A stretch of 64,000 bases of DNA from Verrucomicrobiia bacterium (GCA_035501175.1 DATJWQ010000058.1:213-64212), one strand, 5' to 3'. Numbered from the stretch's first letter, positions 7,281-41,182 are shown. The notes: generated by a model not told the origin, from the sequence alone. Program-made: numbers and translations.

Positions 7281-8048
7281 TCAGGATACTCCTGTCGATC
7301 GTCTCCGCCGCCACTCCCGCCAGACCAATCGGAAAAATCCCATGTCGTCCCGCAGATACCGACGCCAGAGCCGACGCGGTTCCTGCGCCAAACGATACAG
7401 CCATTCCATGCCCACGCGCTGGACCCATTTCGGGGCGCGCTTGAGCACTCCCGCAGTCACATCGAAACTCCCACCCACGCCCATCACAAACGGCACGGCC
7501 ATTTCCTTCTTCCACTTACCCAAAAACAGTTCCTGCTTGGGCGAACCGACCGCCATGCACAGCACATCCGGCTTCACCCGCTTGATCTCGTCCACCACGC
7601 CCGCTTCTTCCTCGGGCTTCCAATAACCGTTCCGCCAGCCCGCAAATTCCAGCCTCGGATACCGGGCTTTCAGCACATCGACCGCCTTCGACACAATCTC
7701 CTGCCGCGCGCCCAACAGATACGGATGTAGCCCCCGTTCCGCGCACCGACCCATCAGCGCATCGAACAAATCCACGCCCGTCACCCGCTCCTTGATCGGG
7801 CAACCGAATAATCTCGACGCCCAGATCACCGGCTGGCCGTCCACCGTGATCAGATCGCAATCGAGCACCGTCTGACGCAAGCTCGGGTTGGTGTCCATCT
7901 TGACGAGCTTGTCGACGTTGACGACCACGTGCTGGTGAATCCCGCCGTCCTTGACCATCGCCTCGATCCGATCGAGGACCTCGGTCATGTTCAGGTTGTC
8001 GATGGGAATGCCAAACAGCGTGACCTTGTCTGAGGCAGGAGCATTCAC
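7281..8048 (-). CDS. WecB/TagA/CpsF (GT26) glycosyltransferase, copy 1
   Basis: VVNVDKL, DGQPV, RVTGVDL, NGY, GSPKQE, GVGGSFD, RAPKWVQRVGMEWLYRLAQEPRRLWRRY; GTG 8048 overlaps the wecB stop (GTGA). Confidence 0.92.
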   Translation of the reverse strand: MNAPASDKVTLFGIPIDNLNMTEVLDRIEAMVKDGGIHQHVVVNVDKLVKMDTNPSLRQTVLDCDLITVDGQPVIWASRLFGCPIKERVTGVDLFDALMGRCAERGLHPYLLGARQEIVSKAVDVLKARYPRLEFAGWRNGYWKPEEEAGVVDEIKRVKPDVLCMAVGSPKQELFLGKWKKEMAVPFVMGVGGSFDVTAGVLKRAPKWVQRVGMEWLYRLAQEPRRLWRRYLRDDMGFFRLVWREWRRRRSTGVS

Positions 8049-9151
8049 TTCCGAATCGGCAGCTCCAGTAAGCACTGTATGATCCGTGACGCCGCCTTCC
8101 CGTCCCAATACTTCGGCACACGCCCCTTCTTGCCCTTCCCGTCCAGAACTTTCGTGGCCTCGGCCACGATCTTGTCCCGATCCATCCCCACCAATGTGCT
8201 CGTCCCCTCCGTCACGGTCACGGGCCGGTCGGTGTTCTCGCGCAGCGTCAGGCACGGCACGCCCAACACGGTCGTTTCCTCCTGGATTCCGCCCGAATCG
8301 CTCAGCACCAGCTTCGCGCCAGTCATCAGACAGAGCGAATCGAGATAACCCAATGGCTCGACAAGCCGCAGGTTCGGCCATTCGCTGACCCGCTTCCAAA
8401 ACCCGAATTCGTTCAGCCGTGCCCGCGTCCGCGGATGGACCGGGAAGGCCAGCGGCAGCCGCTTCTGGATCGCTTCCAACGCCGACAAGATCCCCGCCAG
8501 CGTGTCTTTCGAATCGACGTTCCCCGGCCGATGCAACGTGACGTACCCGTATTCGGAATTCAGCCCGAGCTTTTGCCGAATGTCCGATTTCAAGCTTTCA
8601 TCGCGCAGCTTCAACAGCGTGTCGATCATCACGTTGCCGACGAAGAAAATCTTCTCCCTCGGCACCCCTTCCCGCAACAAATTCGCGTCCGCATCCGCGC
8701 ACGTCGTAAAGCAATAGTCGCTCAGCGCATCGGTCACGAGGCGGTTGATCTCCTCCGGCATCGTGCGGTCGAAACTCCGCAGACCCGCTTCCACGTGCGC
8801 CAGTGGGATGCACAATTTCGCCGCCACCAACGCCGCCGCCAGCGTGGAATTCACGTCGCCCACCACCATCACCAAATCCGGCCGCTGCGCCACGAGCAAC
8901 TTCTCCAGCTCGACCATCACCCGCGCAGTCTGCTCGGCGTGGGTGCCCGAGCCGACTCCCAGGTACACATCCGGTTTTGGCAGCCGCAACTGCTCGAAGA
9001 ACAGGTTCGACATGTTGTCGTCGTAATGCTGCCCCGTGTGCACCAGCACCGGCGCAAAATCGTCCGGATGACGCGCGTACTCCGCCATCAGCGGCGCCAT
9101 TTTCATGAAATTCGGCCGCGCGCCCACCACGTTGACGATCCGCATCTTCAT
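8045..9151 (-). CDS. wecB: UDP-N-acetylglucosamine 2-epimerase (non-hydrolyzing)
   Basis: VVGARPNFMK, HTGQHYD, GDVNS, HVEAGLRS, PEEINR, DSGGIQEE; ATGA overlap with the upstream gene. Confidence 0.95.
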   Translation of the reverse strand: MKMRIVNVVGARPNFMKMAPLMAEYARHPDDFAPVLVHTGQHYDDNMSNLFFEQLRLPKPDVYLGVGSGTHAEQTARVMVELEKLLVAQRPDLVMVVGDVNSTLAAALVAAKLCIPLAHVEAGLRSFDRTMPEEINRLVTDALSDYCFTTCADADANLLREGVPREKIFFVGNVMIDTLLKLRDESLKSDIRQKLGLNSEYGYVTLHRPGNVDSKDTLAGILSALEAIQKRLPLAFPVHPRTRARLNEFGFWKRVSEWPNLRLVEPLGYLDSLCLMTGAKLVLSDSGGIQEETTVLGVPCLTLRENTDRPVTVTEGTSTLVGMDRDKIVAEATKVLDGKGKKGRVPKYWDGKAASRIIQCLLELPIRK

Positions 9152-28673: not shown

Positions 28674-29813
28674 TCACGGCGTGATGATCACTTTGACGAC
28701 CTTGTCCTTGTAGCCGGCATTCAACGCGAACGCTTCGGCTGTTTGGCGCAGCGTGAAGCGATGCGTCACCAGCGAGCGCACGTCCACCCTGCCGGAGGCG
28801 ACCAACTGAATTGCGCGCGGATAGGTGTGCTTCATGCGCCGGCTGAACACGACCGTCAGCCCTTTGCGCCGGGCCGTGGAATGCTGGAACGAGCAACGGT
28901 CTTCCGAAGGAATCCCGACGATCAAGACGCGGCCACCGGGACGCGCGAGATCGATGGTTTGCTCGATGGCGTTGCCGCCCCAAGCCGCTTCGATGGCAAT
29001 GTCGACTTCCGCGCGAACCGGCAGGGGCTTCGCGCCGAACCTCATGGCCAACGCGAGACGCCAGGGGAGCGGATCGCGGACGAAGATTTCGGCGGCGCCG
29101 GCGAGTTTCGCGGTTTGAATGAGCAACAGGCCGATCGGACCCGCGCCGAGAATGGCCACGCGGTCGCCCACCCGGATCTTCGCAAGATCGGTGGCGTGGA
29201 GCGCGACGCCGAGAGGCTCCAGCAGGGCGGCGGATTCGTCGTCCAGCGAATCGGGCACGGGGAAACAAGTCCGGGCGGGCACGATCATAAATTCGCGCAG
29301 GCTGCCATCGTCGGGATACAGGCCGCAGAAGTGGAGGCGCCGACAGAGATTCGGATGGCCCTCTTCGCAAAGGTCGCAGTGATGGCACGGATGAGCGGGG
29401 TCGACCGCCACGCGCGCGCCGACGCGGAGATTTTCCACGCCACTGCCGAACGCTTCGATGACGCCCGAGAATTCGTGCCCGAGAACGATCGGGGATTTGG
29501 GAACGGTATCACCGATGCGGCCATCGGCGAACGTATGAAGATCGCTTCCACAGATGCCGGTGGCGCTCACGCGCAGGAGCACGTCGCCGGGACCGGGCCG
29601 GCCGGGTTGCGGAACGGGTTCCACCCGCACGTCGCGCGCACCGTAGAGGCGCGCGGCCAACATGCCGCGGGGTGTGGAAATCGACTTTGACAACGGCGCC
29701 GCGGGCATGGCCTGAACGACGGAAGAAAGCGATCGGGGAGAGGGCGTGGTTTTCGCGGGCGGTTTGGCGCGACGCGCGGCCGGTTTCGGCTCTGTCTTGG
29801 ATGATTTGATCAT
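28674..29813 (-). CDS. Zn-dependent polyol dehydrogenase (sorbitol/xylitol/arabitol DH-like)
   Basis: [43 protein letters not shown]; ATGA overlap with the araA stop. Confidence 0.88.
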
Positions 29814-31324
29814 ACTCGTCCCAGTCCCGGCGCGAGGTGAAAATAGACCTCGTCGTTGCGGAGTTGTTGTTGGAATGCGCGGAGTTGCGTCGAGGCATCG
29901 ATCACGGCCAGTTCGATGCCGGCCATGTTGGCGAAGTCTTCCATGTGCTCGGCGGTCACGGCGTAACTGAAGCCAGTGTGATGCGCGCCGCCGGCATGGA
30001 TCCACGCGGCACAGGCGGTTTTGAAATCGGGCCGGCAACTCCACACGGCACGGGCGACGGGAAGATTGGGCAGTGGTTGGGGAGGTTCGACCACATCGAC
30101 CTCATTGACGAGGAGGCGGAAACGGTTGCCGAGGTCGATGATCGACGCGTTGATCGCGGGGCCGGGCGGCGCGGTGAACACGAGGCGAACGGGATCTTCC
30201 CTGCCGCCGATGCCGAGCGGATGAATTTCGAGGGACGGTTTGTCGGCGGCGATGGATTCGCAAATCTCGAGCATGTGCGCGCCGAGAACGAGATGGCCGT
30301 CGGGATCCAAATGGTAGGTGTAATCCTCCATGAATGACGTGCCGCCGGGGAGGCCGGCGGCCATGACTTTCATGGCGCGGAGCAGCGCACAGGTCTTCCA
30401 GTCGCCTTCCGCGCCGAACCCATAGCCATCGGCCATCAGACGCTGGACGGCGAGGCCCGGCAGTTGTTTCAGGCCGTGGAGATCCTCGAACGTGGTGGTG
30501 AACCCTTTGAAGTCACCCGATTTCAGGAACGCGCGAAGACCGAGTTCGATGCGCGCGCCGTCGCGGAGCGATTCGTGGCGGGCGCCGCCCTTGCGAAGTT
30601 CGCTGGCGACATCGTAACGGTGCTCGTATTCGTCGCACAGGCGATTGATCGCCGCGTTGCCGACGGCGTTGACGGTTTTCACGAGGTCGCCGACTCCGTA
30701 GCCGTTGACGGCATAACCAAATCTCGTTTCGGCGGCGACCTTGTCGCCTTCGGTAACGGCGACCTGGCGCATGTTATCGCCGAATCGGCAGAACTTCGCG
30801 CCCTGCCAGTCATGCCATGCGCGGGCAGCGCCCATCCAGACGGCGATGCTGTCCTGGACCTCGGTGTCCGACCAATGGCCGACGACCACCTTGCGATTCA
30901 GACGCAGGCGGGTGTGAATGAATCCCGCTTCGCGGTCGCCATGGGCGGACTGGTTGAGGTTCATGAAATCCATGTCGATCCCGGTCCACGGCAGGTCGCG
31001 ATTGAACTGCGTGTGCAGGTGGAGGAAGGGTTTCTTGAGGCTCGTGAGGCCGCCGATCCACATTTTGGACGGCGAGAACGTATGCATCCAGAGGATCAAC
31101 CCGGCGCATTTCGGGGCATGATTGGCGTCGAGGCAAAGTTGGCGGATCGCGTCGGGCGTGATGAGCACGGGCTTGAACACGATCGTTAACGGCAGCCGCT
31201 TCGCGCCGTTCAACTCCGCGACGATCCTGCGCGAATTCGCCGCGACTTTCTTCAGCGTCGCTTCGCCGTACAGATGCTGACTGCCTGTCGCGAACCAGAT
31301 TTCAACGGAATCGAGATTCTTCAT
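29810..31324 (-). CDS. araA: L-arabinose isomerase
   Basis: [59 protein letters not shown]. Confidence 0.97.
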
Positions 31325-31347
31325 GCGAGATACCGCCGCGAGTTGCT

Positions 31348-32664
31348 TCAAATGAATTCGTTCAGAATATTCTCCAGCATTTCCTGCCGGCCGCTCGCGT
31401 TCGGAGCGGCCTCGCCGTTCTTGAGAGTGTACGCTTCGAGGTCCTTCAAACCAACCCTGCCCGTTTCGATCTCGCGTCCGATGCCCTTGTCCCACGAAGC
31501 GTACCGCTCTTTCACGAACTCCGCGAGCCGGCCGTCCTTGCGGATCGACGTGGCAATCTTCAGCCCGCGCGCGAACGCGTCCATGCCGCCGATATGCGCA
31601 TGGAAGAGGTCGACGGGTTCGAAGCTGTCACGGCGCACCTTGGCGTCGAAGTTGAGCCCGCCGGTTTTGAACCCGCCCATGGCGAGCACGACAAGCATGA
31701 TCTGCGTGGTTAGATAGATGTCCGTTGGGAACTGGTCGGTGTCCCAGCCGAGGAGTTCATCGCCACGATTGGCATCGATGGAGCCGAGATGGCCCGCGGC
31801 GGCGGCCACGGTGAGCTCGTGGAGCATCGTATGGCCCGCGAGCGTAGCGTGGTTGGTTTCAAGGTTGAGCTGAAAGTCGTTGAGCAGATCAAACTCGCGC
31901 AGGAAATTCAGACAGGCTGCGGCATCCGAATCGTACTGGTGTTTGGTCGGTTCCTTGGGTTTCGGTTCGATGTAGAACTGGCCTTTGAAACCGATCGCCT
32001 TCTTGTAATCCACCGCCAGGTGCAGGAATTTCGCCAAATGCTCCTGTTCGCGCTTCAGGTCCGTGTTGAGCAGCGTCGAATAGCCCTCGCGTCCGCCCCA
32101 AAACACGTAGCCCGCGCCGTCGAGCTCGTGCGTGACCTCAAGCGCCTTCTTCACCTGCGCGCCCGCGAAGGCAAATACGTCGGCATTGCAGCTCGTCGCC
32201 GCGCCGTGCATGTAGCGCGGATTCGAAAACAGATTCGCCGTGCCCCACAACAAGCGGATTCCTGTCCGCTGCTGTTCCTCCTTCAACACCTTGACCACCG
32301 CATCGAGGTTTTTGTTCGTCTCGCGCAGGTCATTGCCCTCGGGCGCCACGTCGCGGTCGTGAAAACAGTAAAACGGCGCCCCGAGCTTCTCGATGAACTC
32401 GAACGCCACGCGCGCACGCTTCTGCGCGTTGGCGATGGAGTTGGAGCCGTCGTCCCACGGGCGCACCGCGGTGCCGACGCCGAACGGATCGCTCAGCGCG
32501 TTGCGGAACGTGTGCCAGTAGCAGACTGCGAAGCGCAAGTGATCGCGCAACGATTTGCCGTCCACCTTCCCGGCGGCATCGTAGTGTTTGAACGCGAGGG
32601 GATTCTTCGACTTCGGGCCTTCATACTTGATCTTCGAAATCTCGGGAAATGCCTGTGTAGCCAT
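31348..32664 (-). CDS. xylA: Xylose isomerase (class II)
   Basis: [61 protein letters not shown]. Confidence 0.97.
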
Positions 32665-33174
32665 GTTGACCTTTATTCCGCCGCGGGGCGGACTTAATGA
32701 AGCGGTTCGGGCCTGTTTGTGCCACAGCCACGCCTCGCACCGCAATAGGTTTTTTGAATCGCGAGACACCGTGGAGACGCCGTTATCGGGTTTGGAGAAG
32801 AAACGAGCGGGGAAGAACTGTGCGAGAGCGATGTGGATTTGAATGGCAGGAGACAGCCGATGAGATGTCGGTCATCGAGCCGTGATCTCCCCCAGCGGCA
32901 CCGGGACGGACGTGAAGATCGCCTGACAAACCCCTGGGATGAGCAACACCCCTGTGTCCCCTGAGATCAAAACCCGCATCCCACCCAGCTCATCCGTCAA
33001 CCCATTCCCTCTACAGCTTCACGTCACGGCCCCGGTACCGGCCGGTCGAGCCCTTTAACCTGTCATCACTGTCGCGAACGACCGTGACATCACCGGGGCG
33101 GAGATATGACATTCCTGCGACAACGACATGGCGGTTGGGTGACAATCGTGTGACGGAGGCGCGTGAAAAAACGG

Positions 33175-33253
33175 GAGCGCAACAACGGGTCAATTCACCG
33201 AGTCGTGAACAAGGCAGTCGTTGGTTGAGTTGCCTTTTGCCGTCGTTGCGCTC
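33175..33253 (-). ncRNA. Candidate structured RNA/DNA element 1 (three-way junction followed by a U-tract)
   Basis: 14-bp closing stem GAGCGCAACGACGG/CCGTTGTTGCGCTC with G-U wobble on the minus strand, two internal hairpins (AAGGCA/TGCCTT, GTTCAC/GTGAAT), then CCG-T6; homologous to 38790-38875. Confidence 0.45.
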
Positions 33254-33297
33254 GCCGAAATCGCACTCGGCTGTGCCCAAAGCAAGCCGAGGATTAT

Positions 33298-33309
33298 GCA
33301 AACGTTTGC
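33298..33309. promoter_or_regulatory. LacI/GalR-type operator palindrome GCAAACGTTTGC
   Basis: Perfect 12-bp palindrome fitting the TGnAAnCGnTTnC LacI-family pattern; TTGACT on the minus strand at 33350-33345 just upstream. Confidence 0.55.
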
Positions 33310-33735
33310 TCAGTTTAATGTACTACCTTTCACTGAGTTTGTCCAGTCAATATTTTTCTGTTTTCCGGCCTGATTGTGCTCCAACATGTTGCGGAAGGAC
33401 GGTCCTACCTCCCGATGGGGCTTTGGCCACGAATCTCGGCTATTGCGCGCCAACCAACAGGCCTTCTTTCCGCCTTGTGTTTGTCCTATAATTCTGGTCT
33501 GCTTAGGGCGTAGGCGGGAGCCGCGGCGTTCGCGCAGAGCAATCTGATGGTTCCCGTCTCGTGTAGCGCAGGGCACCGGTGCGTATTCGCGACCTTCAAC
33601 TGCCCGGCCGTCCCCGGCGGCGGCCGACAGCCTCGGGTCATGCGCGCCCGCGCGTGATCGACGCAAACGGGTCAAGCCGATTATCATCATACCGATATTC
33701 TTGCGGCACAACAATCCCAACAGAGATATTCCCTC

Positions 33736-34134
33736 ATGGATGCATTCCCCAGTCAATTGCGTAAGTTTTTAACTGCCCGACAATGGAACCAGGTCCGCGC
33801 GGCGACGGAGATCGGGATAACCCAATCACAGATCAGCGATTACCTCAACGGCGTGAGCGAGCCGTGTCTGAGCACGGCGGTCGCCATTGCGAAACGGCTC
33901 GGCGTCTCGCTCGATGAACTCGCCGGGGTCAACGTGTCCAAGTCCGTCCTCCGGGAAGAGAGCGCGTTGTACGCGGCCAGCGAATCGTTTGTCCAGTGGG
34001 GCGAACGTCTCAAGCGCCGGTGGAAAAAGAAGGACCCATCGCACGACGAGATGGAACTGGCCATCCGCATCCTGTTTCCCGACGAGGCGGATAAAGTCGT
34101 CCGCTGGCTGAACGGACTCCCGCCAAAGGTGTAA
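33736..34134 (+). CDS. XRE-family HTH transcriptional regulator
   Basis: NQVRAATEIGITQSQISDYLNGVSEPCLSTAVAIAKRLGVSLDEL is a cI/Cro-type HTH. Confidence 0.88.
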   Translation: MDAFPSQLRKFLTARQWNQVRAATEIGITQSQISDYLNGVSEPCLSTAVAIAKRLGVSLDELAGVNVSKSVLREESALYAASESFVQWGERLKRRWKKKDPSHDEMELAIRILFPDEADKVVRWLNGLPPKV

Positions 34135-37347: not shown

Positions 37348-38487
37348 TCAGCGACGCGCCGGCGGAGCAGTCGATTCGCGCTGGAGCAATTCGGCATCAA
37401 GAAGGGTCGAGGTCACGGTGTGGGTATGATTCTCCAAGGCCGAGAGGACGCGCTCGATGGTCAATCGGCCGATCAGGCTCTTGTCCACGCGAACCGTGGT
37501 CAGCCGCGGATGCGTCGTCGTGCCCCAGATGATATCGTCGAACCCAATGATGGAAATGTCGCGCGGTACTTCGAGGGGAGACAGTCGATGAACCGCTTGG
37601 ATCGCGCCGACCGCCATTTCGTCATTCATGCAAAACACCGCCGTGGGCGGAGCCTTGGACTTGAGCAGCGATGCCATCGCTTGATAGCCGCTGTCCAGAC
37701 GGAAATCGCCCTGAAAGTGTCGAACGGATTCGCCGGGGATGCCCGCCTGCTTCAGCGCGTTGTGGGCGCCTTCGAGACGCTCGCGGGTTGCGGCAGCGTC
37801 ATCCTCGCCGAGGAAGACCGCGATGTCCTTGTGCCCCAATGCGAGCAAATGATTGACGGCTGTTTCGGCGCCGCCGATGTTGTCGACAGCGATCGTATCG
37901 ACGCGCAGGCCGCGAAGCTGAAAATCAACCAGGACCGACGGCGGCCCGTTACGAACGATCCGCCGGAGGCCGTCGGAATCGAACGGCCCGAGGAAGATCA
38001 CGGCATCGAGGTTGGCGTGGCCCATTTGCTCGGAGATGTCCGCGGTGTCGGACTGGGGCATGGGCAGCACGACGAGGTTGCCCTTGCGTTTGCTGATCTC
38101 GGTGCGCAGGCTGGCGAGGATTTCGGCGTGATAAGGACCGGGCTCGCCGGTCAGTACGCGGGAAATCAGACCGACCGTGAGCACTTTGTTTCGGACGCGC
38201 TCCCTGCGGACGGGGAGCGTCTCGGAAACGTAGGTGCCCTGGGCGGGCTTCGTGTAAATCAACCCTTCGGACTTAAGTTCAAGCAGGGCGCGTCGAACGG
38301 TGATTTTGGTGACGCCGCAGGTCGTCGCCAAATCGTCCATCGACGGCAATCGCTGGCCGGGCTTCAACTTGCCGTCACGGATATTTCGTCCAAGGCGGAG
38401 GGCCAATTGTCGATACAGGTGTTCGCCCGATTCGCGATGATCGCGGGCGAAGGTTTGAATCGCAGAAATTGGCGACTTGTTTTTCAT
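37348..38487 (-). CDS. GntR-wHTH / LacI-type effector-domain hybrid regulator (AraR-like architecture)
   Basis: LKPGQRLPS..LA...GVTKITVRRALLEL..EGLI...GTYV, then a periplasmic-binding fold (DNIGG, PTAVFCMND..A.G, DISIIGFDD, LTTV). Confidence 0.88.
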   Translation of the reverse strand: MKNKSPISAIQTFARDHRESGEHLYRQLALRLGRNIRDGKLKPGQRLPSMDDLATTCGVTKITVRRALLELKSEGLIYTKPAQGTYVSETLPVRRERVRNKVLTVGLISRVLTGEPGPYHAEILASLRTEISKRKGNLVVLPMPQSDTADISEQMGHANLDAVIFLGPFDSDGLRRIVRNGPPSVLVDFQLRGLRVDTIAVDNIGGAETAVNHLLALGHKDIAVFLGEDDAAATRERLEGAHNALKQAGIPGESVRHFQGDFRLDSGYQAMASLLKSKAPPTAVFCMNDEMAVGAIQAVHRLSPLEVPRDISIIGFDDIIWGTTTHPRLTTVRVDKSLIGRLTIERVLSALENHTHTVTSTLLDAELLQRESTAPPARR

Positions 38488-38527
38488 AAAATCAGGCTCC
38501 AAAAGCGGCCATACAGCGCATGGATAC

Positions 38528-38621: not shown

Positions 38622-38644
38622 TATGCTACTAGAATCGTAGCATA
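38622..38644. promoter_or_regulatory. Perfect inverted repeat TATGCTAC-N7-GTAGCATA (candidate operator)
   Basis: 8-bp arms in an AT-rich intergenic region. Confidence 0.45.
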
Positions 38645-38789: not shown

Positions 38790-38875
38790 GAGCGCAGCTG
38801 CAGGAACCTTGGTCGGTTAACACGAACAAAGCCTCGTTCACGACCGGGCGAACAACCACGCGGCTGCGCTCTTTT
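38790..38875 (+). ncRNA. Candidate structured element 2, homologous to 33175-33253
   Basis: Stem GAGCGCAGCTGC/GCGGCTGCGCTC with T4 tail; shares GCCT(C/T)GTTCACGAC and GG..GAA hairpin with element 1. Confidence 0.45.
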
Positions 38876-38908
38876 CGTTGATTCTCCGCCCCTGCCCCCC
38901 CGTGCGCA

Positions 38909-41182
38909 CTATGGCTGGCGTGTGACTTTCAGGTGCAGGAATCTGGCGCTGGTTGCCGACAGCGGATTGCCGGCGTCAGAGGCTTGAATCGTTTCCGTTA
39001 CACTGTTGCTCTGAATGATGGTCGAGGTGATCCCGTTCGCGCTCCATGGGCCGCCCGGATTGTTGGCCCCTTCGGCGGCGTAAGTGAGGTCGATTGCGGA
39101 TAGTACCTTCGTGTAGGTCAGACTCAGGCAATCACAATTCGTACTGACTTGCAGGACGGGCAATCCCTGCGCGCTGGTGACGTTCGGATTCAGACTCAAG
39201 GCGTATTCCAACAAATTCGCGACACCGTCACCGTCCGGATCCGCCAGATCGCCACTGATCGCGGCGTTGTTGGCGTTCGTACCAAACTCCGTCCATCGCC
39301 AATCGTTGAACGGTGTGTCGTGCAAAACCATCGTCGCGCTTGCGGGCGATCCAACGCTGTAGGTGGCGGAATTCGCCAAAGTCAACGTCACCGTCACGTC
39401 GCCATCGACGGTGCCATTGTCAATGGGCGCAATTGTAATCGTCGACGAAGCTGAGCCTGCTGCAATTGTCGCGGTATCGGAAATGAAGCTGTAATCAACA
39501 CCATTGCTGGCAGTGCCAGCGATCATGTAATTCACCGTCAGATCCGTATTCGTCGAGCCAAGGCGGGAAACAGTGAATACGCCCGGTATCGCGCCAAACT
39601 TGTAGGCGTTCGATGTTGTCGCGGAGATGCTGACGACGGACGGGCCGACGGCATAGAGGGTCGCATTGTTGATCGCATAGACCGTTCCATCGACGCCGAC
39701 GAGCGTGGGGGTGTAGGCTTCGCCGATGCCGGACGTCAATGTGACCGCCTGCGTCAGCGTGTTCGACGTCAAATCCCAGCGGTACAGATTTCCATCCTCG
39801 TTATTGGCAAGGACCGATTTCGTAAACGGATCAACCGCCGCCGAATTGATGCACCACTCGCGGACCCCCGCCAGTGGTGGATTCGGCGTCGGACCGAGGA
39901 CGGTCAGCACCTCATTCATCACGGTAGCGCCGCTGACCGGATCGGTCTCGGTGGCTTCGGGGTCGAGAATGGCAATCTTGTTGGAACCGTTTCCACCCGC
40001 GTCGGCGTAGTTGTTGTACTTGGTCATCAACAAATAGGCCGAGCTGCCGTGGTACGAAGCCACGAGAGACGTGGACACAATGGAGGCCGTGTCGTCCCAG
40101 CCAAACGCACCCGGCGTCTTGCTGTGGGCAAGCGAGCTGTCGAAGTGGAGCAACCAGCCGCGGTAATGGTTCTCACCCGCCGGGGTCTCCAGAACACCAT
40201 AATACACATCGCCGTCGGTCCCAATCGTGGGCGAGGCCGTGCCATCATCAGGCACGCTGGCATCGCTCGACGGAGTGAGCACGTCTTTCAGCCGCACCTT
40301 GGCCACCGTTGAGAGCGTCGAGCTGTTCAACGCGATCAGGTAGCCGTAGTTTCCGAAATCGCCGCTGGAACTGTTAACAGCGATATACAACGTGTTGCCG
40401 TCGATACTCAGGGCGGGTGCGCAATTCTGCGCCACTTTGATAATCCCTGAGTCACTGGCCGCCGCTGTGGCGGAAATCCACGTGCCCGTCCCACTCGCGT
40501 CAATCCGCGCAACACCGCTGGTCAGGCTCAACGGCGTAGACCCGGTAACCTGAAAGCCGAAAAAAATGTCTCCCTTCGTGTCCGAAGTAATCGGTGTATC
40601 AATAAACACATTCCCCAGATATGCGTTCGTATTGGCCAGGTAATTCGTCAATCCATAGAAAACGACTTGTCCGATGACCGGCGCATTGGTTGAGTCGGGG
40701 GCATCGCAGTAGTAGACGGTGCCGCCGCCTCCGGGAAAGTACAGCCGGTTCTTCGGCGTAAGCGTCCCGGAAAAACTCGGCGTCCAGTTGTGCGGAGGGA
40801 GAACGTAATCCGTGGACTGCATCCACTGCAACGCGCCATTCGTGCCGGCATGCGCTTCGATGCGGAAGCCGCCCGACGCCCCCGTTTTCACCGGCACGAG
40901 GACCGTGTTGGAAGACGTAATCAGCGGTGAGCCGTAGTGGATGAGCAACTCATCGCCACTATACTGCGGATCGAGGTCGACCGGTGTCTGCCAACGGATG
41001 AGACCGAGCGGATACGAGACAACAGCCGACACGGCACCATGCTGCGCGTCGTGTGCGTAATCGCACCAGGCCGCGTTAGTCTGGGCGAAGCTGTACGATG
41101 GGAACGACAAACCGCCAACGGCGCCTGCCGCAAAGGTGACCCACAATTTGTGCACAATACGACCGAGTGAAGCCCTTTTCAT
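38909..41182 (-). CDS. Large secreted protein: putative beta-propeller + Calx-beta domain + acidic C-terminal domain
   Basis: Signal peptide; WQTPVDL..LLIHYGSP N-domain; FTVSRLGSTNTDLTVNY.IAGTA.NGVDY (Calx-beta); DPDGDGVANLLEYALSLNP...RFLHLKV tail. Confidence 0.7.
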   Translation of the reverse strand: MKRASLGRIVHKLWVTFAAGAVGGLSFPSYSFAQTNAAWCDYAHDAQHGAVSAVVSYPLGLIRWQTPVDLDPQYSGDELLIHYGSPLITSSNTVLVPVKTGASGGFRIEAHAGTNGALQWMQSTDYVLPPHNWTPSFSGTLTPKNRLYFPGGGGTVYYCDAPDSTNAPVIGQVVFYGLTNYLANTNAYLGNVFIDTPITSDTKGDIFFGFQVTGSTPLSLTSGVARIDASGTGTWISATAAASDSGIIKVAQNCAPALSIDGNTLYIAVNSSSGDFGNYGYLIALNSSTLSTVAKVRLKDVLTPSSDASVPDDGTASPTIGTDGDVYYGVLETPAGENHYRGWLLHFDSSLAHSKTPGAFGWDDTASIVSTSLVASYHGSSAYLLMTKYNNYADAGGNGSNKIAILDPEATETDPVSGATVMNEVLTVLGPTPNPPLAGVREWCINSAAVDPFTKSVLANNEDGNLYRWDLTSNTLTQAVTLTSGIGEAYTPTLVGVDGTVYAINNATLYAVGPSVVSISATTSNAYKFGAIPGVFTVSRLGSTNTDLTVNYMIAGTASNGVDYSFISDTATIAAGSASSTITIAPIDNGTVDGDVTVTLTLANSATYSVGSPASATMVLHDTPFNDWRWTEFGTNANNAAISGDLADPDGDGVANLLEYALSLNPNVTSAQGLPVLQVSTNCDCLSLTYTKVLSAIDLTYAAEGANNPGGPWSANGITSTIIQSNSVTETIQASDAGNPLSATSARFLHLKVTRQP

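Follow-up and report, generated by a model that had tools for sequence, protein, structure and literature searches.

The stretch of Verrucomicrobiia DNA analysed here (the window, 64,000 nucleotides) contains two similar branched hairpins of about 80 nt, one of them upstream of xylA, which raised the question of whether they represent a new structured RNA and what such an RNA would do. A preliminary description, drawn from the sequence alone, had named an sRNA, an attenuator or riboswitch, and a small mobile palindromic element as candidates. Both sequences read as it had quoted them: element 1 (el1) lies at 33175-33253 on the minus strand, counted from the first to the last base of its closing stem P1, and element 2 (el2) at 38790-38871 on the plus strand. 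The GAGCGCA/TGCGCTC stem ends that it had listed as shared were specific to the pair, with the pattern GAGCGCANC-N50-80-GNTGCGCTC occurring in the window at el1 and el2 only (0 expected from shuffles), as did a 22-nt core, GCCTYGTTCACGACNNGGNGAA (0.03 expected in the window), and with the same 12-nt spacing between the core and TGCGCTC in each. Over 84 aligned columns the elements were 64% identical (z = 5.8 compared to random windows of the same sequence), and their folding energies were -37.4 kcal/mol (el1) and -41.9 kcal/mol (el2), each with z = -4.65 compared to shuffles. A covariance model of the family described below scored el1 at 75 bits on the minus strand and el2 at 70 bits on the plus strand and matched nothing else in the window. 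The proposed homology of the two copies is supported.

The elements share their anatomy with the rest of the family: a closing stem (P1), a short variable stem with an A/C-rich loop (P2), and a near-invariant hairpin, GUUCAC-GACUCG-GUGAAC (P3). In el1, on the minus strand, P1 is formed by 33253-33240 and 33188-33175, P2 by 33236-33231 and 33216-33211 around an A/C-rich loop at 33230-33217, and P3 by 33210-33205 and 33198-33193 around the loop GACUCG at 33204-33199; the 23-nt conserved core GCCUUGUUCACGACUCGGUGAAU occupies 33193-33215, and a T6 tract (33166-33171) follows 3 nt past P1 as a terminator-type tail. In el2, on the plus strand, P1 is formed by 38790-38801 and 38860-38871, the core GCCUCGUUCACGACCGGGCGAAC lies at 38831-38853, and the T-rich tail TTTTCGTT (38872-38879) begins with a TTTT that directly abuts the stem. 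The interior of el2 is a variant in which, in the minimum-energy fold, UUGGUCGGUU at 38809-38818 pairs with GACCGGGCGAA, leaving no distal P3 hairpin in el2 or in its ortholog; the earlier statement that both elements carry the same distal hairpin needs this correction for el2.

Rfam 15 at the gathering threshold gave 0 matches in the whole window and 0 in 11 related loci, and a permissive search (E up to 10) around el1, el2 and the related locus L066 returned chance matches to eukaryotic or archaeal families only, with E of at least 0.57, in agreement with the earlier view that no family matched. Building a covariance model and looking for homologs, as had been recommended, did uncover relatives. 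The 22-nt core was scanned for in one genome per species using a pattern that fixed 19 of 23 core positions and held one degenerate position (C/T). This gave 71 loci; some 45 belonged to Verrucomicrobiia MAGs of peat, bog, palsa and soil origin, several per genome, and the remainder were scattered chance matches inside genes of other phyla. Within Verrucomicrobiia the core was found in only two contexts, type A (34 loci) and type B (11 loci, once per MAG). Type A copies are built like the window elements, in the order GAGCGCAGCCG..., short stem whose loop is A/C-rich, hairpin GUUCAC-GACUCG-GUGAAC, ...CGGCUGCGCUC, T-rich tail. From 31 of them a covariance model was built, and a second, independent sampling of metagenomes with the P1 ends only yielded 34 further type A copies, some with a variant P3; covariance-model matches numbered 68, of which 67 were distinct. 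The family comprises at least 65 distinct copies from Verrucomicrobiia genomes and from metagenomes, of soil and peat. Thus el1 and el2 are related orphan members of a previously undescribed, approximately 84-nt, three-stem RNA family of Verrucomicrobiia.

Some copies depart from the common form: in one, about 30 nt are inserted between P2 and P3 (L050:5161-5289, minus strand), one is truncated and lacks the 3' strand of P1 (L069:4488-4550, plus strand), and two on one contig have an extra hairpin after P3 (L185:5124-5239 and 7959-8074, plus strand). The metagenomes also contain an abundant, long palindromic repeat with AT-rich flanks, (GAAC)GTCATGCY-GAGCGCAGCCGARGCATCTCGC...variable loop...GCGAGATGCYTCGGCTGCGCTC-RGCATGAC(GTTC), which made up at least 56 of the 120 matches to the P1-only pattern (L077-L196; for example L084:735-825 and L088:2270-2360). 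It was rejected as a family member, having only the 11-nt ends in common and being absent from the Verrucomicrobiia loci.

We next consider the fold and the strand. P1 is 14-20 bp long and GC-rich in all copies, P2 is 3-7 bp and P3 6 bp, and the three-way junction of P1, P2 and P3 formed in 33 of 35 copies folded singly, the exceptions being el2 and its ortholog. In the 68-sequence model alignment 95.9% of cells were paired and 10 of 19 pairs showed double changes, which 0 of 500 shuffles equalled, a statistic that is partly built in because the search pattern fixed the P1 ends in half of the sequences. Individual minimum-energy folds contained P2 in 65 of 67 copies; at position -2 its pair was A-U in 27 copies and C-G in 18. 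P1 and P2 are both supported by covariation, as is the earlier suggestion that compensatory change maintains the stems. The RNA strand is the one bearing the T-rich tail, because of its G-U pairs and the covariance-model scores, which were 24.5 bits or less on the opposite strand (24.5 bits for el2); this agrees with the strand first proposed from G-U pairs and the U-tract. The P2 loop, with a median of 12 nt, consists of 62% A, 27% C, 7% G and 4% U, and an (ARN)x3 run was found in 33 of 65 P2 hairpins compared to 2.4% expected, el1 and el2 themselves having no such run in register.

Two features that the preliminary description had not seen, the position of the family after secreted-protein genes and an antisense match to the leader of a TIGR02597-family gene, bear on function. 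Among the 65 distinct copies, 54 start a median of 15.5 nt past the stop codon of a large secreted-protein gene with a C-terminal domain, and all 54 lie on the same strand as that gene. The domain is about 90 aa long, ends in ...GGATNxPSRYYRVRVLLP or a close variant, and is carried by the genes at L014, L020, L022, L029, L043, L060, L063, L066 and others; the host proteins are otherwise unrelated and include an alpha-amylase, GH53, pectinesterase, pectate lyase and PKD/Ig/PATR repeat proteins. Because these 54 copies follow such genes, the family is a 3'-end element of one secreted-protein gene class rather than a leader element. By position, these 54 copies sit at the 3' end of transcription units and in the same orientation, as terminators do, el1 and el2 being exceptions. 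T-richness downstream of the element exceeded A-richness upstream (4.5 vs 3.5 per 10 nt; p = 5e-4), and 32 of 65 copies had at least 5 T in the 10 nt downstream of P1; the P1 stem encloses a three-way junction, which is atypical of an intrinsic terminator. Orphan copies were limited to el1, el2 and a few others (L015/L071, L035, L067, L154).

Conservation was assessed on a contig of the MAG SPRUCE 370 (L056) that is syntenic with the window at 33-42 kb. The el1 ortholog (L056:27-121) is 88% and the el2 ortholog (L056:7133-7228) 87% identical to the window copies, identity in the intervening and flanking genes is 69-81%, and the rest of the intergenic DNA is not alignable; a compensatory change, from A-U to G-C, separates P1 of el1 from that of its ortholog. 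Around el2 the gene content has turned over, SPRUCE 370 having an upstream PEP-CTERM gene (L056:6348-6995) and lacking a 757-aa gene and the window showing the reverse, and el2 is retained in both despite this change. The SPRUCE 370 PEP-CTERM gene separates the AraR-type regulator gene from el2 which, together with the far lower scores of the opposite strand, tells against the suggestion that each copy, read in reverse, precedes a regulator gene. Across paralogs, pairwise identity was 72% within the elements (a figure somewhat inflated by the search patterns), 58% in the last 84 nt of the upstream coding sequence, 53% in the preceding 84 nt and 49%, the random level, downstream. The element is kept by all orthologous genes that have the C-terminal domain.

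Unlike most family copies, el1 and el2 have no upstream gene. El1 lies between an XRE-type regulator gene (33736-34134, plus strand) and xylA (31348-32664, minus strand), which is followed by araA (29810-31495, minus strand), and it shares the xylA strand, 510 nt 5' of the ATG at 32664. A promoter-like site, TGGACA-17-TACATT (33317-33345, minus strand), with a TTGACT also present just upstream at 33350-33345, is directed towards el1 and xylA. As first described, an operator-like sequence stands upstream of el1: the perfect palindrome GCAAACGTTTGC at 33309-33298, located where transcription of the el1 unit is predicted to begin, which by the LacI operator consensus we take to be a LacI-family type operator. 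Folding of 33165-33310 placed a 7-bp hairpin, CUCGGCU...AGCCGAG (33266-33291, minus strand), between operator and el1. Neither the promoter-like site nor the operator is conserved at the corresponding locus of SPRUCE 370. The xylA homologs are 438 aa long, the best relatives (at most 89% identical) being Verrucomicrobiia, and the xylA upstream regions of five relatives with 86-88% protein identity lack the element; el1 is therefore not a conserved xylA leader. Between el1 and xylA we observed a cluster of TGTCA(C/T) repeats with the imperfect palindrome TGTCACGGTCGTTCGCGACA (33055-33155, minus strand), which may be a regulator-binding region for xylA-araA, and the start of this repeat stretch was also found after the el1 ortholog in L056. 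The longest araA reading frame begins with GTG about 150 nt before xylA ends; translation probably starts near 31330, because the 504-aa araA of relatives begins just past xylA.

El2 is placed between the start of a gene for a GntR-HTH/sugar-binding regulator (AraR-type, periplasmic-binding-fold; 37348-38502, minus strand) and the stop codon of a convergent gene for a secreted protein of 757 aa with a Calx-beta match (38909-41182, minus strand), 38 nt from the el2 P1, and there is no downstream gene on its own strand. The C-terminus of the 757-aa protein (38909-39289, minus strand; ...SARFLHLKVTRQP) resembles the family-typical C-terminal domain in a divergent form. The palindrome ATGCTAC-N7-GTAGCAT at 38623-38643, about 120 nt upstream of the AraR-type regulator gene, is likely its auto-operator.

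The only other context of the 22-mer, type B, is informative about a possible target. In 11 MAGs the core occurs in reverse orientation within the leader of a TIGR02597-family gene that has a consensus promoter (TTGACA-17-TAGTCT), a strong Shine-Dalgarno sequence (GGAGGAGAA) and a signal peptide and in every case precedes a PEP-CTERM gene of about 200 aa, the operon being single-copy. The leader contains two hairpins, at sites spaced 40-44 bp apart just downstream of the predicted promoter: site 1, AUUCAC-CGAGUCA-GUGGA, and site 2, GUUCAC-CGAGUC-GUGAAC followed by GAGGC, at positions -48 to -26, with 25 nt between its end and the ATG. The type A core of 23 nt, which consists of the 3' strand of P2 and all of P3, is the exact reverse complement of site 2 and its flank, and its 3' 11 nt also match site 1. 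This includes the non-palindromic loop and flank, which are complementary rather than identical (GACUCG vs CGAGUC, GCCUC vs GAGGC), and since the loops are complementary a kissing-loop contact is possible. As in 3'UTR-derived sRNAs, the conserved seed is complementary to a candidate target mRNA near its ribosome-binding site, and the element lies, by position, at an mRNA 3' end whose terminator it would share.

More distant TIGR02597 loci (L197, L198, L200, L201 and L206/207) have the same leader arrangement, which is missing from the distant homolog L202. A variant site 2, GTTCATCTGGTTGTGAACGCGGG, is found on two independent contigs (L199 and L205), and its reverse complement falls in a class of variant type A cores found in metagenomes, CCCGCGUUCAC(G/A)ACCAGAUG(A/G)AC, exemplified by CCCGCGUUCACGACCAGAUGGAC and CCGCGUUCACGACCAGAUGAAC. 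Loop and flank thus appear to change together at the level of classes, as judged by sequence; among the loci collected, none holds variant core and variant leader on one contig or in one MAG. Perfect complementarity within a genome is partly built in because the search pattern fixed 19 of 23 core bases. At the degenerate position, the sampled element has U in the two MAGs whose leader has A. The 10 core differences within genomes comprised 6 true mismatches and 4 wobbles, and an argument for pairing from wobbles was dropped as not discriminating; RNAduplex energies for full-length RNAs were likewise discarded, as duplexes were over-extended and shuffled backgrounds high. The window elements and their orthologs are the least complementary members of the family. 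The el1 core is complementary to the canonical site 2 with two G-U pairs included and its ortholog has 1 mismatch and 2 wobbles; the el2 core is complementary without interruption only over its first 14 nt, with 3 mismatches in the 3' half, and its ortholog also has 3 mismatches. Beyond the elements themselves, no further antisense sites were found in the window or within each locus. The target in the window's own genome is assumed, because the window contains no TIGR02597 locus.

Taken together, the position and the complementarity lead us to predict, at roughly even confidence, that the elements are terminator-embedded, mostly 3'UTR-borne antisense regulatory RNAs. Of the functions first suggested, an sRNA comes closest. 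P1 and the tail would end transcription, so that the element forms the 3' end of host mRNAs and, at el1, of a stand-alone transcript of about 145 nt whose promoter would be overlapped by the LacI-type operator. The 3' module, released as a processed fragment or still attached as a 3'UTR, would then pair with the TIGR02597 leader, starting from a loop-loop kiss, and the pairing would change translation or stability of that leader, coupling secreted-cargo expression and, via el1, also sugar status to the TIGR02597 operon. The A/C-rich P2 loop might, speculatively, serve as a landing site for an RNA chaperone. A wider, tentative proposal, which goes beyond what we would expect to hold, is a many-to-one circuit in which the 3' modules of dozens of secreted-protein mRNAs all pair with the single TIGR02597/PEP-CTERM leader. 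If so, the cell would meter a surface or sorting component against summed cargo expression, and stand-alone el1, with its LacI-type operator near xylA-araA, and el2 would pass sugar signals on to this node.

Other explanations account for part of these observations. The elements could act in cis only, as lineage-specific branched intrinsic terminators or mRNA-stabilising 3' structures in which P3 binds an RNA-binding protein or nuclease, and the TIGR02597 leader would then have the same palindromic stem through binding the same protein and not through RNA pairing. Sites after stop codons and T-rich tails fit such a role, a stem-reading protein could bind both partners since the P3 stem is identical on both strands, and el1 and el2 have kept the stem but not full complementarity to the leader. 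A cis-only role does not explain why the non-palindromic loop and flank are complementary instead of identical between the two contexts or why they change together in the variant class, and the A/C-rich P2 loop and 23-nt invariant block exceed the needs of a terminator; we regard it as unlikely. The 23 bp might instead be a DNA site (TTCAC-N6-GTGAA) for a palindrome-reading transcription factor or recombinase, present in the promoter-proximal region of TIGR02597 and downstream of many genes. While the repeat is perfectly inverted, orientation is irrelevant for DNA sites, and the two leader sites lie 40-44 bp apart just past the predicted promoter, a DNA site does not explain the RNA-level covariation: the sequence is embedded in a covarying structure with strand-specific G-U pairs, its orientation is fixed relative to P1, P2 and the upstream gene, its asymmetric 6-nt spacer is conserved, and there is no obvious reason for operators 15 nt past stop codons. 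We consider this improbable.

The distribution and flank analyses contradict two further readings, both of which the preliminary description had raised. A small mobile palindromic element of the REP/MITE type, with P1 as terminal inverted repeats, would be multi-copy with palindromic ends, as this family is, might leave degenerate copies such as the insertion-bearing and truncated ones above, and has a possible parallel in the abundant unrelated metagenomic repeat with the same 11-nt ends. Against this, there were no target-site duplications (the longest flanking direct repeat averaged 2.05 nt compared to 1.89 +/- 0.11 for randomly paired flanks), orientation relative to the upstream gene was uniform (54/54), synteny was stable, with elements kept at orthologous sites and el1 and el2 staying in place while neighbouring genes were gained and lost, and copies differ by compensatory changes instead of being near-identical, making mobility very improbable. 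That el1 is a riboswitch or attenuator in the xylA-araA leader, responding to a pentose or related ligand, was suggested by its same-strand location, with a LacI-operator promoter on one side and xylA on the other, and by its terminator-like stem and U6. We find this hardly credible given the 510 nt to the xylA ATG, the location of the family at gene 3' ends, the five relatives whose xylA loci lack the element, the position of el2 with no downstream gene on its own strand, and the lack of a conserved alternative antiterminator fold.

The antisense reading can be placed among known systems by analogy: the nearest known kind is the 3'UTR-derived trans-acting sRNA, kissing-loop antisense RNAs are a mechanistic analogue, and REP elements are a superficial look-alike. 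MicL, CpxQ and DapZ are 3'UTR-derived trans-acting sRNAs, and further enterobacterial examples are NarS (PMC7038943), MalH (PMC8081044) and UhpU (PMC12704781). Like the present family, as judged by position, these regulatory RNAs share the 3' end and terminator of an mRNA, and they recognise the leader of a second mRNA, in many cases encoding an abundant envelope protein, through a short conserved complementary seed, giving mRNA-to-mRNA cross-regulation. Unlike them, the present module recurs in each genome at dozens of different genes, a set defined by their common C-terminal domain, has 23 nt of perfect complementarity where they have a 7-12-nt seed, places the candidate seed inside a hairpin within the terminator-like stem (the three-way junction), and belongs to a different phylum. 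Recognition by a sequence within the terminator structure has been reported for E. coli sRNAs that use the loop of a simple terminator hairpin for target recognition (PMC11979758), whereas here the predicted recognition sequence is a side hairpin enclosed by the terminator stem. With kissing-loop antisense RNAs the candidate pair shares partners that are both hairpins with fully complementary loops, and its long perfect complementarity could extend the kiss. Such RNAs, among them CopA/CopT of plasmid R1 and RNA I/RNA II of ColE1, are cis-encoded on opposite strands of one locus, whereas the partners here lie at unlinked loci with many copies to one target. REP, BIME and Correia repeats are multi-copy palindromes of about 80-150 nt, commonly downstream of genes, that can terminate or stabilise mRNA; the present family is likewise multi-copy, palindromic and situated just past genes but differs in its lack of target-site duplications, fixed orientation, restriction to one gene class, covarying stems and leader-antisense core. 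CrcZ/CrcY-type RNAs carry A-rich 'CA' motifs bound by Hfq/Crc and act as multi-site sponges. They resemble the half of the family that has AAnAAnAA or (ARN)n tracts in the exposed loop; each RNA here holds a single tract, in contrast to those sponges, and in el1 and el2 no (ARN)x3 is in register.

Hardly any regulatory RNAs are known in Verrucomicrobiota, and the literature on Verrucomicrobia sRNAs that we found consisted of passing mentions in reviews. This RNA family is new, supported by covariation, abundant in peat and soil lineages, absent from Rfam, and has a specific candidate partner. If the pairing is real, the family would illustrate with unusual clarity how the 3' ends of many mRNAs can jointly regulate a single target; a many-copies-to-one-target layout tied to a protein sorting-type domain is unusual. 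The work also draws attention to two uncharacterised protein features and suggests a functional link between them. One is the C-terminal domain of secreted glycoside hydrolases and adhesin-like proteins, which no Pfam or NCBIfam model matched. The other is the TIGR02597/PEP-CTERM operon: our literature search on TIGR02597 returned nothing, and a confident AF2 model of the TIGR02597 protein (pLDDT 90.5) is all-beta and internally duplicated, with no neighbour in the PDB at E < 0.001. The operon (L018:5469-6575, minus strand, and L197-L207) often adjoins glycogen genes and many TPR/PMT_2 genes.
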